From: a virus
Lineage: Duplodnaviria > Caudoviricetes
IMG/VR virus record: IMGVR_UViG_3300030376_006356
Location: 1 to 48,280 of that record
Reading direction: 5' to 3' (one strand)
Length of the DNA stretch: 48,280 nucleotides
Shown: piece after piece, positions 9,048 through 48,280 of the stretch
How the letters are laid out: each line of letters starts with the position of its first letter
Position numbering within the stretch: the first letter of the stretch is position 1
Made by a program: the position numbers and the translations under genes
Notes under the pieces: generated by a model
What the model was told of the DNA's origin: nothing
Seen by the model: only the letters and a program-made list of their open reading frames with translations
Databases searched by the model: none

Positions 9048-10846
9048 GAGTAGGGTTAATTGGATTTGGATATTGGGGTAAAATTTTATATTCTAAATTA
9101 GAAAATTTAGAAGTTGATATAAAATTTATATCTAATAGTAAATTACCTTATAAAGATAAATTAAAGGATGTTGATTGGGTAATTATTTCCACACCAAATC
9201 AAACTCATTATGAAATAGTTAAAGATTGTCTTTTAGCTGGAGTTAATGTATTTTGTGAAAAGTCATTAACTTTAGATTACGAATCCTCTTTAGAATTATA
9301 TGAAATAGCTGAAAAAACAAATCGTAAATTATATGTCGATGATGTTTTTATGTATCGAGAAAATAAGATACAAGAAATAAAAAAATCTATTGGTAATAAA
9401 AAAGAGATAGATGTTATTTGGACAAAAAACTCAAGGTCTGATTATGGTGAGTTTGTGATGTCAAATTTATATAATTTAGCTTGGCATGACTTCTACTTGG
9501 TATATCACATCTTTGGTAATAAAATTTATGATATACAAAAAATTGAAACTGAAAAGAAATTAAAATTTAGTTTTAAAATTGATGATATAAAAATAAATTT
9601 TACATATGATAGAATGTGTAGTGAAACAAATCACTCTATAAATGGTGTTGGTTTAGCTCATGATGGTGATGACTCTGATGCATTGACTCAAATGTTAAGT
9701 GAAGTTATATCAGAAAAAGTAGACTTTAAAACAAATAAACAACATTCTTTGTTTTCCGCTAAGACAATTGACAAACTTAGAGAGACTTTGTTTAAAAGGG
9801 TGGCTGTTGTTGGTGGTGGAATATTTGGTTGCACTACTGCTTGGATGTTATCTAAGAATGGTTTCTTTGTTGATTTGTATGAAAAGAATAGTGACATAAT
9901 GAATCAGGCATCTAACATCAATCAATACAGATTACACAGAGGTTACCATTATCCAAGAAGTAAAGATACTGCGTTGTCATCGATAAATAGTGAAAATAGT
10001 TTTTTAAAAGAATATGGTGGCGCTGTAGTTAATGGTGATGTAGAACATTATTACTGTATAGCTAAAGATGATAGTAAAGTTGATGCAAAACAATATTGGA
10101 CATTTTTGAATGAAATGAATTTACATTATAAAGAAAAAAAGCTTGACTTCATGCGCGAAAGTGTTGTAAATTTAGTAGTAAAAGTTAAAGAGTTTTTATT
10201 TAATCCAACACATTTAAAAAGGTTGTGTAAAAACAAACTTGGAAAATATTTAGTTAGGTTAAATTTAAATTCAAATACAACAATAGAAGATTTAGAAAAC
10301 TATGATTACATTGTTAATTCAACATATGCAAATTCAAATCAACTATTGTCAACAGATAAACAAAAGGATTATCAATTTGAGTTATGTGAGAAACCAGTTA
10401 TTAAATTACCTGAACAATATAAAAATAAGAGTGTTGTCATAATGGATGGTCCTTTTATGTGTATCGATCCATTGGGAGACACTGGATTACATGTGATGGG
10501 TAATGTAGTTCATGCAATTCATTCTACTAATGTTGGTAAGTTTCCAAAATATAATTCCAAGTTTGATAACTTATTAAATAAAGGTATCATCAAAAATCCA
10601 TCAATAACTAACATTGATAAATTTATTGAATCTGCTAAAAGATTTTTTATAGACATTGATAAGTCAGAACACATTGGCTCTATGTTTACATTTAGAACTG
10701 TGTTACCTAATAGAGATAATGATGATGCTAGACCAACATTAGTTGAAAAGGTAACTGATAATTTATTTAATGTGTTTTCTGGAAAGATAGGTAATTGTGT
10801 TAACGCATCTAAAAAAATTGTAAAGGAATTAAAAGATGAAAAATAA
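9044..10846 (+). CDS. Fusion of a Gfo/Idh/MocA oxidoreductase and an FAD-dependent (DAO-like) oxidoreductase
   Basis: IGFGYWG, STPNQTH, FCEKS and WHD motifs, then a second Rossmann motif VVGGGIFG with RLHRGYHYPRS. Confidence 0.8.
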   Translation: MRVGLIGFGYWGKILYSKLENLEVDIKFISNSKLPYKDKLKDVDWVIISTPNQTHYEIVKDCLLAGVNVFCEKSLTLDYESSLELYEIAEKTNRKLYVDDVFMYRENKIQEIKKSIGNKKEIDVIWTKNSRSDYGEFVMSNLYNLAWHDFYLVYHIFGNKIYDIQKIETEKKLKFSFKIDDIKINFTYDRMCSETNHSINGVGLAHDGDDSDALTQMLSEVISEKVDFKTNKQHSLFSAKTIDKLRETLFKRVAVVGGGIFGCTTAWMLSKNGFFVDLYEKNSDIMNQASNINQYRLHRGYHYPRSKDTALSSINSENSFLKEYGGAVVNGDVEHYYCIAKDDSKVDAKQYWTFLNEMNLHYKEKKLDFMRESVVNLVVKVKEFLFNPTHLKRLCKNKLGKYLVRLNLNSNTTIEDLENYDYIVNSTYANSNQLLSTDKQKDYQFELCEKPVIKLPEQYKNKSVVIMDGPFMCIDPLGDTGLHVMGNVVHAIHSTNVGKFPKYNSKFDNLLNKGIIKNPSITNIDKFIESAKRFFIDIDKSEHIGSMFTFRTVLPNRDNDDARPTLVEKVTDNLFNVFSGKIGNCVNASKKIVKELKDEK

Positions 10847-35203: not shown

Positions 35204-35276
35204 GGGGCTGTAACTCAGTTGGGAGAGTGCTTCCCTTGCACGGAAGAAGTCGTAGGTTCGAATCCTATCAGCTCCA
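35204..35276 (+). tRNA. tRNA-Ala(UGC), CCA not encoded
   Basis: GGGGCTG/CAGCTCC acceptor stem with G3:U70, CTTCC-CTTGCAC-GGAAG anticodon arm, GGTTCGAATCC T-arm, A73 followed by CAA. Confidence 0.97.
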
Positions 35277-35296
35277 CAATCCAAATGTAACAATTC

Positions 35297-39802: not shown

Positions 39803-39918
39803 TAAACACCATAATATCTGGTAGTTTTTTGATATAAATCTTTATATACTACATACGAAAATATATAGTAGCCATACATATCAAGCTTTTATTTTTTTCG
39901 TGGGAAAAAGACACTAAT

Positions 39919-39973
39919 TGTTACATATTGTTACATAATTACCCTTGTATATTAGCGCTTTTATTCGTAAATT
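39919..39973 (+). promoter_or_regulatory. Class A promoter cassette 4
   Basis: TGTTACA-tat-TGTTACA, N9, TTGTAT, N17, TAAATT. Confidence 0.8.
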
Positions 39974-40029
39974 GTAGTATGATTGGGGGATATGAACCCA
40001 AAGTTTTTTAAAATAAATGAAAAAAAAGC

Positions 40030-40059
40030 TTGACTTATATGGCATTTTATTCGTATATT
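40030..40059 (+). promoter_or_regulatory. Class B promoter upstream of tRNA-Gly
   Basis: TTGACT-N18-TATATT, with an A-tract upstream. Confidence 0.75.
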
Positions 40060-40089
40060 GTAGTATAAGATTTTTGAAATAAAGGTTTT

Positions 40090-40161
40090 GCGGAGTAAGA
40101 ATCAAGAGAGATTCGCTGGATTTCCAATTCAGAGGGTTAGGGGCAGTTCCTAAACTCCGCT
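40090..40161 (+). tRNA. Non-canonical tRNA-Gly(UCC)
   Basis: GCGGAGT/ACTCCGC acceptor stem with U73; GAAT/ATTC D-stem; CTGGA-TTTCCAA-TTCAG anticodon arm; TTAGG-GGCAGTT-CCTAA T-arm; no CCA. Confidence 0.85.
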
Positions 40162-40165
40162 CTAA

Positions 40166-40360
40166 GAGAAGAACGCTCATACTTGGGATGTAGTAATACA
40201 ACCTCAGTCCCTCAGCGTTCTCTCCTCACAATTATGTTCTTTAGTCATTACAGCACATTACTAAAATAATGATAACAAAATAAATCAAAACAATCGACTA
40301 CCGCAAGGCTGAACATATAAATGGTTATATACAAGGTGGTCCTTATAGGAGAATCCTTGT
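40166..40360 (+). ncRNA. Candidate structured non-coding RNA co-transcribed with tRNA-Gly
   Basis: Stems AGAACGCT/AGCGTTCT, TGTA-GTAA-TACA, TATGTTC/GAACATA, TAGTC/GACTA, CC-GCAA-GG and ACAAGG/CCTTGT; no plus-strand ORF in the track. Confidence 0.5.
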
Positions 40361-40362
40361 CT

Positions 40363-40403
40363 GGGCTCATCGTTTAACTCCTTTCCGATGGGCCCTTTTT
40401 TTT
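40363..40403 (+). terminator. Intrinsic terminator with anti-SD loop
   Basis: GGGCTCATCG-TTTAACTCCTTTC-CGATGGGCCC followed by T8. Confidence 0.85.
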
Positions 40404-40457
40404 GTTACAAACTGTTACAATTAAAAACTTGATTATTAGCCATATATGTTGTAATTT
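40403..40457 (+). promoter_or_regulatory. Class A promoter cassette 5
   Basis: TGTTACA-aac-TGTTACA, N9, TTGATT, N17, TAATTT. Confidence 0.8.
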
Positions 40458-44226: not shown

Positions 44227-44696
44227 TGAAACAAATATTGAAACATAAAATAAACTACAAGCAAGTATCTAAAGGATTAGGTATATCAGAAGACTTAGTA
44301 GTTAAGTTTTTTAATGATGGTCGTATAATAGGTAGACTTGGTGAGTTTATATTAGAAGATAAAGATGTAGGTAAGAGAAGTGATAATGAAGGAACATCTT
44401 ATGACAATGTAACTGATGATAATAAACATTTAGAAGTTAGGTCTATAACTAATAGATTATCTTTTGCACCATCAAAAGAAACTGGTTATGGTAGAACAGT
44501 AACAGAAGAGGGTTTTAATGAAAAGTTAAATGCTGTAGATTCATTTGTAGCTATTGACTTTAAAGATAATCCAAGTCAATTAGATTTCTACAAAATACAA
44601 TCAGAGGATGTTAAACGCTGGTGTGATGAGGGGTTTATTGGTAAAGGTAAAGCAGTATCAAGAAATAAAATATTGTCTAAAATTGAAAGTAACTAA
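44226..44696 (+). CDS. Hypothetical protein, PD-(D/E)XK restriction-endonuclease-like
   Basis: GRLGE...SYD.......LEVRS spacing matches motifs I-III, with Arg in place of Lys. Confidence 0.45.
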   Translation: MKQILKHKINYKQVSKGLGISEDLVVKFFNDGRIIGRLGEFILEDKDVGKRSDNEGTSYDNVTDDNKHLEVRSITNRLSFAPSKETGYGRTVTEEGFNEKLNAVDSFVAIDFKDNPSQLDFYKIQSEDVKRWCDEGFIGKGKAVSRNKILSKIESN

Positions 44697-45409
44697 TGAG
44701 TTTTTTTGATTATAGTAATCAATATGATTATCCTATATTTTTTGAGGAATGTAAAGTTCCTCAACAAACAAAGATATTCAGAGAGTTAATTAATAAGTAT
44801 CATTCTTATGTCAAGTATTCGGATGTTCCTCAACGAAGAATAAACTATCTTATATACAGAACATCAGATAGTAAAGTTATAGGAGCTATTGGTATATCAT
44901 CTTGTGTTCTTGCTATATCAGTTAGAGATAACTATATAGGATGGGATAAGGAAACAAGATTAAAGAACTCTAATATGGTTGCTAATAATTATAGGTTTTG
45001 TTTAGCGCCCGACAATGGTATAAAGAATGTGGGAACTATGGCTCTTAAACTACTTCGTGTAGAAGGTGGTAAGAGATGGAAAGAAAAGTATGGTGATGAT
45101 TTGGTTATGTTAGAAACATTTGTCCAACCACTTATAAAGGGTAGTGATAATAAAAGAAATGGTGCTGTGTATTTAGCAGACAATTGGAGTATGGTTGGTA
45201 AGACAAAGGGAACATCAATCAAGAAAGCACCTGTATCATTGTGGCAAAGAGAAGATAGCACAAGAGGTGAACTATCAAGAAGAGACCCAGCTGCAGCTAT
45301 TAAGAAGTATGCTGTGGGTAGAGAACATTATGTGATAACCGAATCACCTATTAAAAAAGTTTTTATCAAACCACTTAATAAGAAATGGAAGAAGATGTTG
45401 AATGGATAA
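44696..45409 (+). CDS. DUF4338 (DruA-like) / Mom-superfamily GNAT protein
   Basis: INKYHSY, IGAIG, NNYRFCL, LETFV and GAVYLADNW..VGKTKG motifs. Confidence 0.75.
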   Translation: MSFFDYSNQYDYPIFFEECKVPQQTKIFRELINKYHSYVKYSDVPQRRINYLIYRTSDSKVIGAIGISSCVLAISVRDNYIGWDKETRLKNSNMVANNYRFCLAPDNGIKNVGTMALKLLRVEGGKRWKEKYGDDLVMLETFVQPLIKGSDNKRNGAVYLADNWSMVGKTKGTSIKKAPVSLWQREDSTRGELSRRDPAAAIKKYAVGREHYVITESPIKKVFIKPLNKKWKKMLNG

Positions 45410-46145
45410 ATATTGTGATACATCTAAACTATCTGTCAGACAAATAGATAAACCAACTGCTAAGAAGATGGTTGTTAAATACCATTACTCTAAACTATGG
45501 ACTAAGTGTAGTGTAGCATTAGGTTTGTTTATTGATACAGGTAAGGAACATTCATTCTTTGATGAGGCTGAAGAGAAAATGGTTGGTGTGATTGTATATG
45601 GAGACCCAATCGGAAGATTGACTGGACAATCCATATCAGATGAAATAAAAAGAACTGAAGTATTGGAACTCACGAGACTATTTATACACGATGGTTATGG
45701 AAGTAATATTGAATCTTGGTTTATATCTCAATCCTTTAATTGGTTACGAAAAAACAAATCAGAAATCAAAGCTCTTATATCCTACGCTTCTCCTGTTGAG
45801 GGACATAGTGGAACAATCTATCAAGCAACGAATTGGATTTATCAAGGTAACAACAATCGTTGGAATGATGGTTGGATATTTAAGTTCGAAGAAGATGGTA
45901 GATGGATTCATGGAAGAACTATCTTCCCACATTACAAAACTAATGACCCATATGAAATACAGAAACAAGTTAACAAAACTTTTTGGATAAGGAAAGAATT
46001 ACAGAAACATAGATATGTTTATATCTTGGCTGGTAAGAGAATAAAGAAGAGGATAATGAAAACATTAAAACATGAAACCTTACCATATCCAAAGTCAAGA
46101 GATACAAATGAATCAGAAATAATAACATTGGAGCCAGTTAAATGA
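45402..46145 (+). CDS. Mom-family adenine-modifying GNAT enzyme
   Basis: KYHYS, GVIVYG, LELTRL, ESWFISQS, LISYA....GHSGTIYQATNWIYQG and KHRYVY motifs. Confidence 0.85.
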   Translation: MDKYCDTSKLSVRQIDKPTAKKMVVKYHYSKLWTKCSVALGLFIDTGKEHSFFDEAEEKMVGVIVYGDPIGRLTGQSISDEIKRTEVLELTRLFIHDGYGSNIESWFISQSFNWLRKNKSEIKALISYASPVEGHSGTIYQATNWIYQGNNNRWNDGWIFKFEEDGRWIHGRTIFPHYKTNDPYEIQKQVNKTFWIRKELQKHRYVYILAGKRIKKRIMKTLKHETLPYPKSRDTNESEIITLEPVK

Positions 46146-46801: not shown

Positions 46802-47377
46802 ATGAAGAACAAAAAAAATAAATACATACTAATAACAAAGGACTTACAAAAGAATCTTATAGATTTTTTAGATGAAGTTCAATTAGAAGCAGCTAAACTT
46901 AATACAACTGATAATATGCATATAGTTAATTTCTGTTCGTTTGCAATTGAAGAATTATTAAGTGGACTTGATGCTGAAGTAAAAAAGAAACATAAACCTC
47001 AAAAGAAATCAAGAGACCAATACTTGGATGAAACATTTATGGATTGGAATCTACCTGAGATGTCCGATGAAGAATACAATAAACTTGTAGACCAAGTAGA
47101 TGGATTCTTGAGAGGTTGGGAAAAAGAATATCAAAAGAAACATCCAAACGAACCTATACAAAAGAGACCATACAAACCAGAAGTTGATGATGTAATGGAG
47201 TATTGTTCATTAGATGAGATAATTGATTTTCTTAAAGACGACCCTGAGTTATCTGATGAAGAACGATTCGAATTATATTATGATGAGAGAGATAAAAGAA
47301 GAGAAAAGAAATCAGGTATGTCGTATGAACAATTGTTAAAGAAGTCTGGCGTATTACCACCATCAACTAAGAAATAG
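46802..47377 (+). CDS. Acidic hypothetical protein
   Basis: AAGGAGG RBS preceded by TATATTTATATA. Confidence 0.65.
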   Translation: MKNKKNKYILITKDLQKNLIDFLDEVQLEAAKLNTTDNMHIVNFCSFAIEELLSGLDAEVKKKHKPQKKSRDQYLDETFMDWNLPEMSDEEYNKLVDQVDGFLRGWEKEYQKKHPNEPIQKRPYKPEVDDVMEYCSLDEIIDFLKDDPELSDEERFELYYDERDKRREKKSGMSYEQLLKKSGVLPPSTKK

Positions 47378-48280
47378 TTTCTCTTCTTCATCCTTGATGT
47401 AGTTACCAATATCTTTACCCTTTAATCCTTTAGATATAGCATCCTTTGCTGTAATGGATAACTTCCAATTCCACAACTTCATTATGTATTTGTTGGAGTT
47501 GATATTAACCCATTGTTTAATTTGTGATGTAGTGAGTTTACTATTGTCTTGTAGTTTCTTATATGATGGTAAGTCTTTAATCACTTCAGCTGGTCTTGAT
47601 AACTGAATCAACAATGATATATCCTTAACCTCTTGATTAGTATATTTCAAACTATTTAATTTAGATTTAACTTTATCCACACCATTGGTTTGTAACATAT
47701 ATGCAATCTGTAATTTATAATCATTGGTATCTACTTTTCTATGTAGAACACTTAGTCCAGGAAAGATTTGTTTAAACATTCCCAATGTTCTTAACATTTT
47801 AAAATAGTTGGGAACATTCTTAGCTTTGGTGACACCCTTGATAAATTCATCTCTTATACGCTCCGCTGATACTCCTGATATATCGGAGTTCTGTTTAAGG
47901 GCGCTCCAAGTATCTTTAGTCATCTTACCACCAACACTACCAGCGAATCTAACGGCCCGAAGTTTACGAAGTGGGTCTTCATCAAATCTATCCTCTGCTT
48001 TACCAACGGTTCTGATTTTCTTTTTCTTCAAGTCAGCTATACCACCAACTAAGTCAACGATTTGTTTCTTACCAATATCGTAGAATAAAGCATTGATGGT
48101 TAAGTCTCTTCTCTTAACATCACCTTTAATATCTGTGAAGTCAACTGAATCAGGTCTTCTTCCCTTACCAATATCTTTTCTGAATGTAGCAATCTCGTGT
48201 CCACCTATAATCACAACACCGAATTGTTTTCCAACCTCTACTGATTTGAATCCACCTTGTTTTGCAATATCCAATACTTC
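47363..48280 (-). CDS. cca: tRNA nucleotidyltransferase (CCA-adding/poly(A) polymerase class II), 5' end outside window
   Basis: EIATFR, RRDLTINAL, EDPLRKLRAVRF and SAERIRDE motifs; frame open to the window edge. Confidence 0.85.
   Translation of the reverse strand, partial: EVLDIAKQGGFKSVEVGKQFGVVIIGGHEIATFRKDIGKGRRPDSVDFTDIKGDVKRRDLTINALFYDIGKKQIVDLVGGIADLKKKKIRTVGKAEDRFDEDPLRKLRAVRFAGSVGGKMTKDTWSALKQNSDISGVSAERIRDEFIKGVTKAKNVPNYFKMLRTLGMFKQIFPGLSVLHRKVDTNDYKLQIAYMLQTNGVDKVKSKLNSLKYTNQEVKDISLLIQLSRPAEVIKDLPSYKKLQDNSKLTTSQIKQWVNINSNKYIMKLWNWKLSITAKDAISKGLKGKDIGNYIKDEEEKLFLS

Follow-up and report, generated by a model that had tools for sequence, protein, structure and literature searches.

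To our knowledge, dedicated non-ribosomal tRNAs are well characterized only in staphylococcal cell-wall synthesis. Passages of PMC7826273 describe the non-proteinogenic tRNA-Gly NP1–3 of Staphylococcus aureus as cellular RNAs of a staphylococcus-only lineage that keep U8, carry UGC or UGU in the T loop, and serve the Fem transferases FmhB, FemA, and FemB, with lipid II as acceptor. Their T stem includes A49–U65, U50–A64, and A51–U63; the same passages give G49–U65 and G51–C63 as the tight EF-Tu pairs of proteogenic tRNA-Gly. A tRNA-Gly-like "pseudo-tRNA" has been reported in the mom homologue of 16 Dehalococcoides ssrA islands (McMurdie 2011, PMC3146451). It is situated within the initial 150 bp of mom, has a free position 34 ("DCC", with G34 allowed), and is mislabelled by annotation pipelines; the passages of that paper that describe it propose no function. 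In phage Mu, Mom takes glycine off Gly-tRNA-Gly and attaches it to the N6 of adenine in double-stranded DNA, accepting all three E. coli tRNA-Gly isoacceptors with their different anticodons and rejecting Gly-tRNA-Ala (passages of PMC13219725, 2026). Mu Mom scavenges host tRNA-Gly in this account, and the phrase "phage-encoded tRNA" is absent from those passages. Passages of PMC7824862 likewise treat Mom without a tRNA partner, and we found no paper in the open-access literature linking a phage-encoded tRNA to Mom.

The RNA described here is encoded in a complete virus record of 48,280 nt (30% G+C), called the window. It shares with S. aureus NP1–3 the GlyRS identity elements, a weak-type T stem, a T loop without UUC, a 6-bp anticodon stem, and a likely partition from EF-Tu towards a GNAT-fold transferase. 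Unlike NP1–3 it is viral and has A8, a GGC T loop, a 5-bp D stem, and the elbow pairs A18:G55 and G54:G58, and its probable acceptor is DNA; two of the three staphylococcal T-stem pairs match, the window having U–A at 49–65. It is thus best read as an analogue of the staphylococcal cell-wall tRNAs and not a member of that group. The preliminary description of this locus had proposed such kinship, which is not supported, given that the staphylococcal RNAs keep U8, are confined to staphylococci, and serve Fem enzymes, and that no Fem family was matched among the 55 ORFs scanned in this partial genome. With the Dehalococcoides pseudo-tRNA, which we liken to it by description only, it shares a tRNA-Gly-like cloverleaf tied to mom and a free position 34. 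Its family differs in lying mostly at the mom 3' end or free-standing and in having no G34 among the matches listed, and Dehalococcoides gave no match among 22 strict-loop genome matches. Relative to canonical tRNA (Rfam RF00005), the 7/5 cloverleaf, G19:C56, G53–C61, and the glycine identity set are shared, whereas U8:A14, GG, and UUC are missing.

The RNA and its surroundings in the window

The elements relevant to this work are the following.

39916–39997, + strand: second promoter-like unit, belonging to a phage repeat present in five copies (family D1); putative function
40010–40067, + strand: promoter-like unit immediately 5' of the RNA (TTGACT, 18 nt, TATATT; repeat families D3/D4); putative function
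40090–40161, + strand: 72-nt tRNA-Gly(UCC)-like RNA of a Mom-associated family, identified by cloverleaf, fold, and family covariation
40165–40230, + strand: second conserved RNA module 3' of the tRNA-like RNA, a hairpin with a conserved internal loop
40362–40405, + strand: hairpin and T run, putative terminator of the RNA operon by sequence and fold
44696–45409, + strand: DruA-family gene overlapping the start of mom (PF14236, E 4e-23), an alternative candidate partner
45402–46145, + strand: gene for a Mom-family GNAT (PF25680, PHROG 1384, PDB 8BV8), likely a DNA adenine hypermodifier and the putative consumer of the charged RNA
47363–48274, − strand: tRNA nucleotidyltransferase-like gene (PF01743; PHROG 2244, E 7.4e-45)

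The sequence at 40090–40161 reproduces exactly the cloverleaf of the preliminary description, with all four stems paired. The bacterial tRNA-Gly identity elements given in passages of PMC9976931 (G1–C72, C2–G71, G3–C70, U73, C35, and C36) are all present, the anticodon being UCC. In place of the canonical elongator features U8, A14, G18G19, and U54-U55-C56, the RNA has A8, C14, A18, and G54-G55; its D loop contains no GG, its T loop reads GGCAGUU, and its T stem includes U49–A65, U50–A64, and A51–U63, the loops and these pairs being as previously noted. Five pairs describe the D stem better, the fifth being C14–G21 (U14–A21 in a sister form) and the loop AAGAGA. Similarly, the anticodon stem is better represented by six pairs, since positions 32 and 38 pair in 131 of the 135 family sequences among the matches listed. 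Minimum-energy folding yields this cloverleaf at −24.7 kcal/mol (z −3.02), and 0 of 200 shuffles equaled it. The window copy keeps U33, A37, and a 7-nt anticodon loop, and every one of the three reading frames around it contains stop codons. The gene does not encode CCA, the letters after U73 being CUA; the tRNA-Ala of the window (35204–35277, 68 bits), canonical as had been stated, also lacks an encoded CCA. Addition of CCA would fall to the product of the nucleotidyltransferase-like gene.

A low score with standard finders had been anticipated, and this was the case. ARAGORN in bacterial mode misses the RNA at thresholds as low as 70, the call coming from the mitochondrial mode alone; a search of Rfam up to E 10 found no match. 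A covariance model (R1), built with the window RNA included, scores it at 90.6 bits. Each of the 24 RNA-seq runs listed contained at most 0.11 of the query words, and relatives cover the tRNA region in two of four RNA-seq runs, in contigs only, which is neutral on transcription.

The window is likely a fragment of a larger phage genome, since relatives found by means of its AAA gene sit on contigs of up to 169 kb. Its gene content includes glycan genes, the AAA ATPase, UvdE, and the DruA-family, Mom-family, and tRNA nucleotidyltransferase genes. About 30 kb (2195–32491) is occupied by genes for glycosyltransferases, sugar-nucleotide enzymes, carbamoyltransferases, and radical SAM proteins. Between 35294 and 40481, a promoter-like repeat of 82 nt in which the motif TGTTACA is doubled occurs five times before small genes. 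The tandem promoters reported earlier upstream of the RNA stand as two promoter-like units, both copies of repeats that recur 5' of genes across 32.4–42.7 kb. A sigma-70 scan placed one promoter at 40030–40059 (10 of 12 consensus positions), though the region as a whole is not enriched in promoters (11 vs. 8.7 ± 3.1 in shuffles). The hairpin at 40362–40405 was not listed by a terminator scan because its loop exceeds the length permitted by the scan.

The RNA family and its elbow

A pattern fixing only both loops recovered 55 viral loci, and the addition of fixed C35–C36 gave 22 genome loci. In metagenomes the loop pattern found at least 120 loci, and about 750 stretches are estimated for one strict pattern; a viral pattern with the exact ends of the window RNA was too strict and returned no matches. 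Of the 206 pattern matches listed, the window included, 192 (140 distinct) are cloverleafs of the glycine type, 11 did not fold, two have anticodon GGU, and one is cut by a contig end. Five of the 140 were dropped as misparsed or as having fewer than 21 pairs, leaving 135 distinct sequences that were scored. Family loci span 27 to 69% G+C. GenBank phages yielded nothing that matches the window RNA; for a nested copy they gave a single match of 26 nt, attributable to chance.

Among 35 distinct sequences, 97% of cells are paired and 17 of 23 pairs show compensatory change, with a covariation score of 0.754 as compared with 0.170 in shuffled alignments and at most 0.121 in slid registers. Homologues thus carry compensatory changes rather than stem-breaking drift, and the earlier argument for selection over decay is upheld: covariation in the stems far above controls excludes decay, and the RNA is real and not a decayed gene. 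Among the matches listed, A8 is present in 135/135 sequences, U73 in 133/135, and G3–C70 in 125/135, so that the glycine identity set given in passages of PMC9976931 is kept across the family. Position 34 is A in 49, U in 45, C in 40, and N in 1 of the 135 (among the matches listed). G34 occurs in none of these, though GCC is a common host anticodon. At pair 7–66, the mismatch G7·A66 is found in 61/135 and A66 in 127/135 (same set). Two copies from archaeal bins have A73, which fits archaeal identity; the signal is weak because three bacterial host tRNA-Gly(CCC) also have A73 and bins can hold foreign viruses.

Several loci carry the RNA in tandem pairs, often one UCC and one ACC (L105, L277, L294, L304, L325, L357, and L367). 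Two loci (L115, RNA at 9989–10058, and L110), on contigs of 190 kb and 125 kb with neither Mom nor DruA, have RNAs with the D and T loops of the family but with anticodon GGU, A73, and another acceptor stem; a further unusual tRNA-like stretch lies just upstream of this form. A short tRNA-like RNA with anticodon CAU, a reduced D arm, and the T loop GGCAGUA was also seen (L255, G011:23659–23725).

The preliminary description did not see that the odd D and T loops covary as tertiary pairs. With a pattern in which the scaffold was fixed and both loops were free, 88 loci (56 distinct sequences) were obtained. In these 56, only two combinations are seen at positions 18:55, namely A:G (48) and G:U (8); positions 54:58 are G:G in 47, U:A in 8, and C:A in 1; and 19:56 is G:C in 55. 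The two swaps are independent, as both G18:U55 with G54:G58 and A18:G55 with U54:A58 occur. These patterns suggest that the elbow is rewired and not lost, and that the molecule is probably L-shaped with substituted tertiary pairs. Because the elbow pairs covary, the odd loops are explained in a way that is compatible with use on the ribosome. Selected suppressor tRNAs tolerate purine–purine 54–58 pairs; our search of the open-access literature for purine pairs at 54–58 and 18–55 found none.

The anticodon loop is less constrained. Among the matches listed, U33 is present in 99/135 sequences (73/77 free-standing and 24/56 nested copies), and an 8-nt anticodon loop occurs in 36/135, all 36 falling among the 77 free-standing copies. 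As for the tight EF-Tu pairs, G49·U65 is found in 0/135 and G51–C63 in 2/135 (among the matches listed), as compared with 11/11 and 5/11 in the tRNA-Gly genes of five family-bearing Planctomycetota genomes. The A51–U63 pair, counted earlier among the marks of the staphylococcal type, is no hallmark of the present family: it is found in 34/135 family sequences (among the matches listed) and also in a canonical-looking phage tRNA-Gly (L017). Seven canonical-looking phage tRNA-Gly are in fact mixed, with A51–U63 in at least one and G51–C63 in only one, which blunts the argument from the T stem. The T-stem signal for low EF-Tu affinity is suggestive only.

Association with mom genes

The likely partner of the RNA, the mom gene at 45402–46145, was absent from the preliminary description. 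The encoded protein matches PF25680 (E 2.5e-47, 161.6 bits, curated cut-off 27.1), PHROG 1384 (E 1.4e-53), and PDB 8BV8 (E 4.8e-11), and is homologous to phage Mu Mom. It retains equivalents of Mu H58, Y59, R111, S124, and Y159. Passages of PMC13219725 list R111, S124, D149, and R151 as needed in Mu Mom; by a derived +9 offset, the window protein keeps the first two as R92 and S105 and has S130 and V132 in place of D149 and R151. The stretch around D149 and R151 varies across the Mom family, and relatives carry two to three mom genes.

When ORFs near 50 loci were clustered, Mom was found in 41 and the next commonest family in 14. Among 47 glycine-type viral loci, Mom is in the locus in 42 and elsewhere on the contig in three, and of the remaining two one is at a contig edge and the other on a contig of 6 kb; chance loci used as a control had Mom in 0/6. 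The Mom match of one locus (L087) was not counted, as it was to the tRNA-encoded tail of the profile used. In the loop-agnostic set of 88 loci, Mom is in the locus in 74 and elsewhere on the contig in eight, one locus is a DruA fusion, and five have neither, all five on contigs of 4–30 kb. Of 21 genome copies, 20 are in frame within the mom 3' end and 17 are in Planctomycetota records. Loci L225 and L233 belong to a cultured strain of the Anaerohalosphaeraceae. Among the matches listed, 92 of the 192 copies overlap the mom 3' end, three are just upstream, and 97 are free-standing. The free-standing arrangement is the commonest marine form and is mostly found on contigs too short for a whole-contig Mom test. 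The window copy is free-standing, with mom 5.2 kb downstream.

The association was also evaluated on contigs selected by the AAA gene, namely 48 contigs from the 50 longest of 80, with an R1 cut-off of 50 bits. Mom is present on 8 of 12 contigs with an R1 match and on 3 of 36 without (p 1.6e-4), a p value that overstates independence since the contigs are related and fragmentary. The corresponding figures are 9/12 and 8/36 for DruA and 12/12 and 8/36 for Mom or DruA. Three of the 12 R1 matches have the exact loops of the window RNA. The other nine belong to sister forms whose T loop is canonical; two of these nine lie directly before mom and five directly before a DruA-family gene. Other tRNAs, used as a control, show no link to Mom (4/23 vs. 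7/25, p 0.5). The reverse relationship is weak. An R1 match of at least 50 bits is found on one of 38 mom-selected contigs (those of at least 20 kb from 80 loci), within 6 kb of mom at one of the 80 loci, and in 0 of 4 cultured mom phage regions. The link is therefore one-way: the RNA family tracks Mom, and Mom usually occurs without the RNA.

Nested copies always lie in one frame, and the mom frame runs through the RNA in 48 of 56 (among the matches listed). Dual coding is nevertheless not the source of the loops, because the RNA lies beyond the end of the Mom domain, frameshifts occur in some tails, and, of the 77 free-standing copies among the matches listed, 61 have a stop in the nested frame and still keep the loops. 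At one locus (L445:555–1244), an ORF without a Pfam match ends at the RNA precisely where mom usually ends. At another (L257/L259, G089), tandem mom genes beside a family B DNA polymerase each have a tRNA-Gly-like copy in the 5' part, a nesting that resembles the Dehalococcoides arrangement.

The second RNA module, exemplified by 40165–40230, has a covarying stem and fixed internal-loop motifs, and Rfam gives no match to it. It occurs upstream of the AAA gene whether or not the tRNA is present. Among the matches listed that have 200 nt of downstream DNA, it is 3' of 44/92 free-standing and 0/88 nested copies. A fuzzy match to it was found at 12 of 80 AAA loci, two of these being far away and perhaps due to chance. 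The module was seen at L001, L002, L003, L004, L006–L008, L010, L012, and L055.

A candidate glycyl donor for Mom

The non-ribosomal role suggested by the preliminary description is borne out as probable from sequence comparison. The RNA is probably the phage's dedicated glycyl donor for Mom-family DNA hypermodification and not for protein synthesis. It would be transcribed from the upstream promoter-like units, trimmed, provided with CCA, and charged by host GlyRS through the retained identity set. A T stem without tight pairs and a drifting anticodon loop may lead to weak capture by EF-Tu and the ribosome. The charged RNA would be handed to Mom, which would move glycine to adenines in phage DNA, and the glycylated adenines may shield this DNA from host nucleases. 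That Mom tolerates different anticodons but rejects Gly-tRNA-Ala is in keeping with an RNA whose position 34 is free and whose acceptor end is fixed. Against the donor reading, Mom does not need the RNA, as Mu uses host tRNA; in addition, the window copy is 5.2 kb from mom, and the encoded Mom shows Ser and Val in place of D149 and R151.

The RNA might instead be a working translation tRNA-Gly with its elbow rewired to evade host tRNA-targeting defences, on which Mom merely draws. Since the window copy keeps U33, A37, a 7-nt loop, and the swapped elbow pairs, it could still decode. The covariation that maintains these pairs, the tolerance of suppressor tRNAs for purine–purine 54–58, and the retention of U33 in most free-standing copies are consistent with decoding, as is the fit of UCC and ACC to the common glycine codons of the window (GGU 246 and GGA 146 of 428 in 16 ORFs). 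This reading is nonetheless unlikely given the 8-nt anticodon loops of 36 of the 77 free-standing copies among the matches listed, the loss of U33 from most nested ones, the absence of tight EF-Tu pairs, and the fact that ordinary phage tRNAs, unlike this family, have no tie to mom. For free-standing copies the partner could be a DruA-type protein, and a similarly unlikely reading is that the RNA donates glycine to the DruA-family enzyme, or to another phage tRNA-dependent transferase, and not to Mom. A sister form with A8, a 5-bp D stem, and a canonical T loop lies directly 5' of a 397-aa DruA-family gene on five contigs; one copy (L433) lies within a DruA fusion of a complete phage (89 kb) that has no Mom; the DruA gene is beside mom in the window; and DruA co-occurs with R1 matches in the AAA-selected set. 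However, copies with the exact loops of the window RNA nest in mom and not in DruA genes. The window DruA-family ORF has a weak Mom-like match to PHROG 1384 (E 7.4e-5), but DruA gave no profile match to a Mom-like fold or to a tRNA-using GNAT, and its GNAT lead in the atlas is weak (0.83).

A decoy or cis element, either a sponge for a tRNA-Gly toxin or a processing site that cuts mom mRNA, seems slightly less plausible still. Where the mom frame runs through the RNA, excision of the tRNA would cut the mom message before its stop, and in the clade of the window the RNA shares an operon with another conserved RNA module. A cut site would, however, have no need of C35–C36 and U73 and would not explain the 97 of 192 copies outside mom (among the matches listed), and there is no reason to expect that a general decoy would track mom. 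Donation of glycine to the cell wall or surface, as in staphylococci, is very improbable. The RNA has A51–U63, U50–A64, G55, and a 6-bp anticodon stem in common with the staphylococcal tRNAs, and the window has many glycan genes; no Fem family was found among the 55 ORFs of this partial contig, and, of the 50 loci, Mom is a neighbor at 41 and every other neighbor family at 14 or fewer. We give almost no weight to a pseudogene or to a by-product of a Mom C-terminal peptide. The RNA is missed by finders and nested copies share one frame, but covariation is far above controls, free-standing copies keep the loops despite stops in the nested frame, and the Mom domain stops short of the RNA, with some tails frameshifted. 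The compensatory changes had already refuted this reading.

The donor reading for Mom may be one case of a wider class, which we propose tentatively. Such a class would be widespread, its members being virus-encoded RNAs that carry amino acids, have a re-engineered elbow, are orthogonal to translation, and feed DNA hypermodification of the Mom and DruA types. Excision of nested copies would limit Mom expression, and the GGU form (L110 and L115) would carry other amino acids for undescribed modifications.

The passages of PMC13219725 on the supply of Gly-tRNA leave competition with translation to late expression. A virus-encoded donor, if true, would answer how Mom-type enzymes obtain glycyl-tRNA past EF-Tu without draining translation. 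The family escapes standard finders, and about 750 metagenome stretches are estimated for a single strict pattern. Its natural A18:G55 and G54:G58 elbow variants should be useful to work on tRNA structure, and the RNA family may serve as a marker for new tRNA-dependent DNA modifiers.
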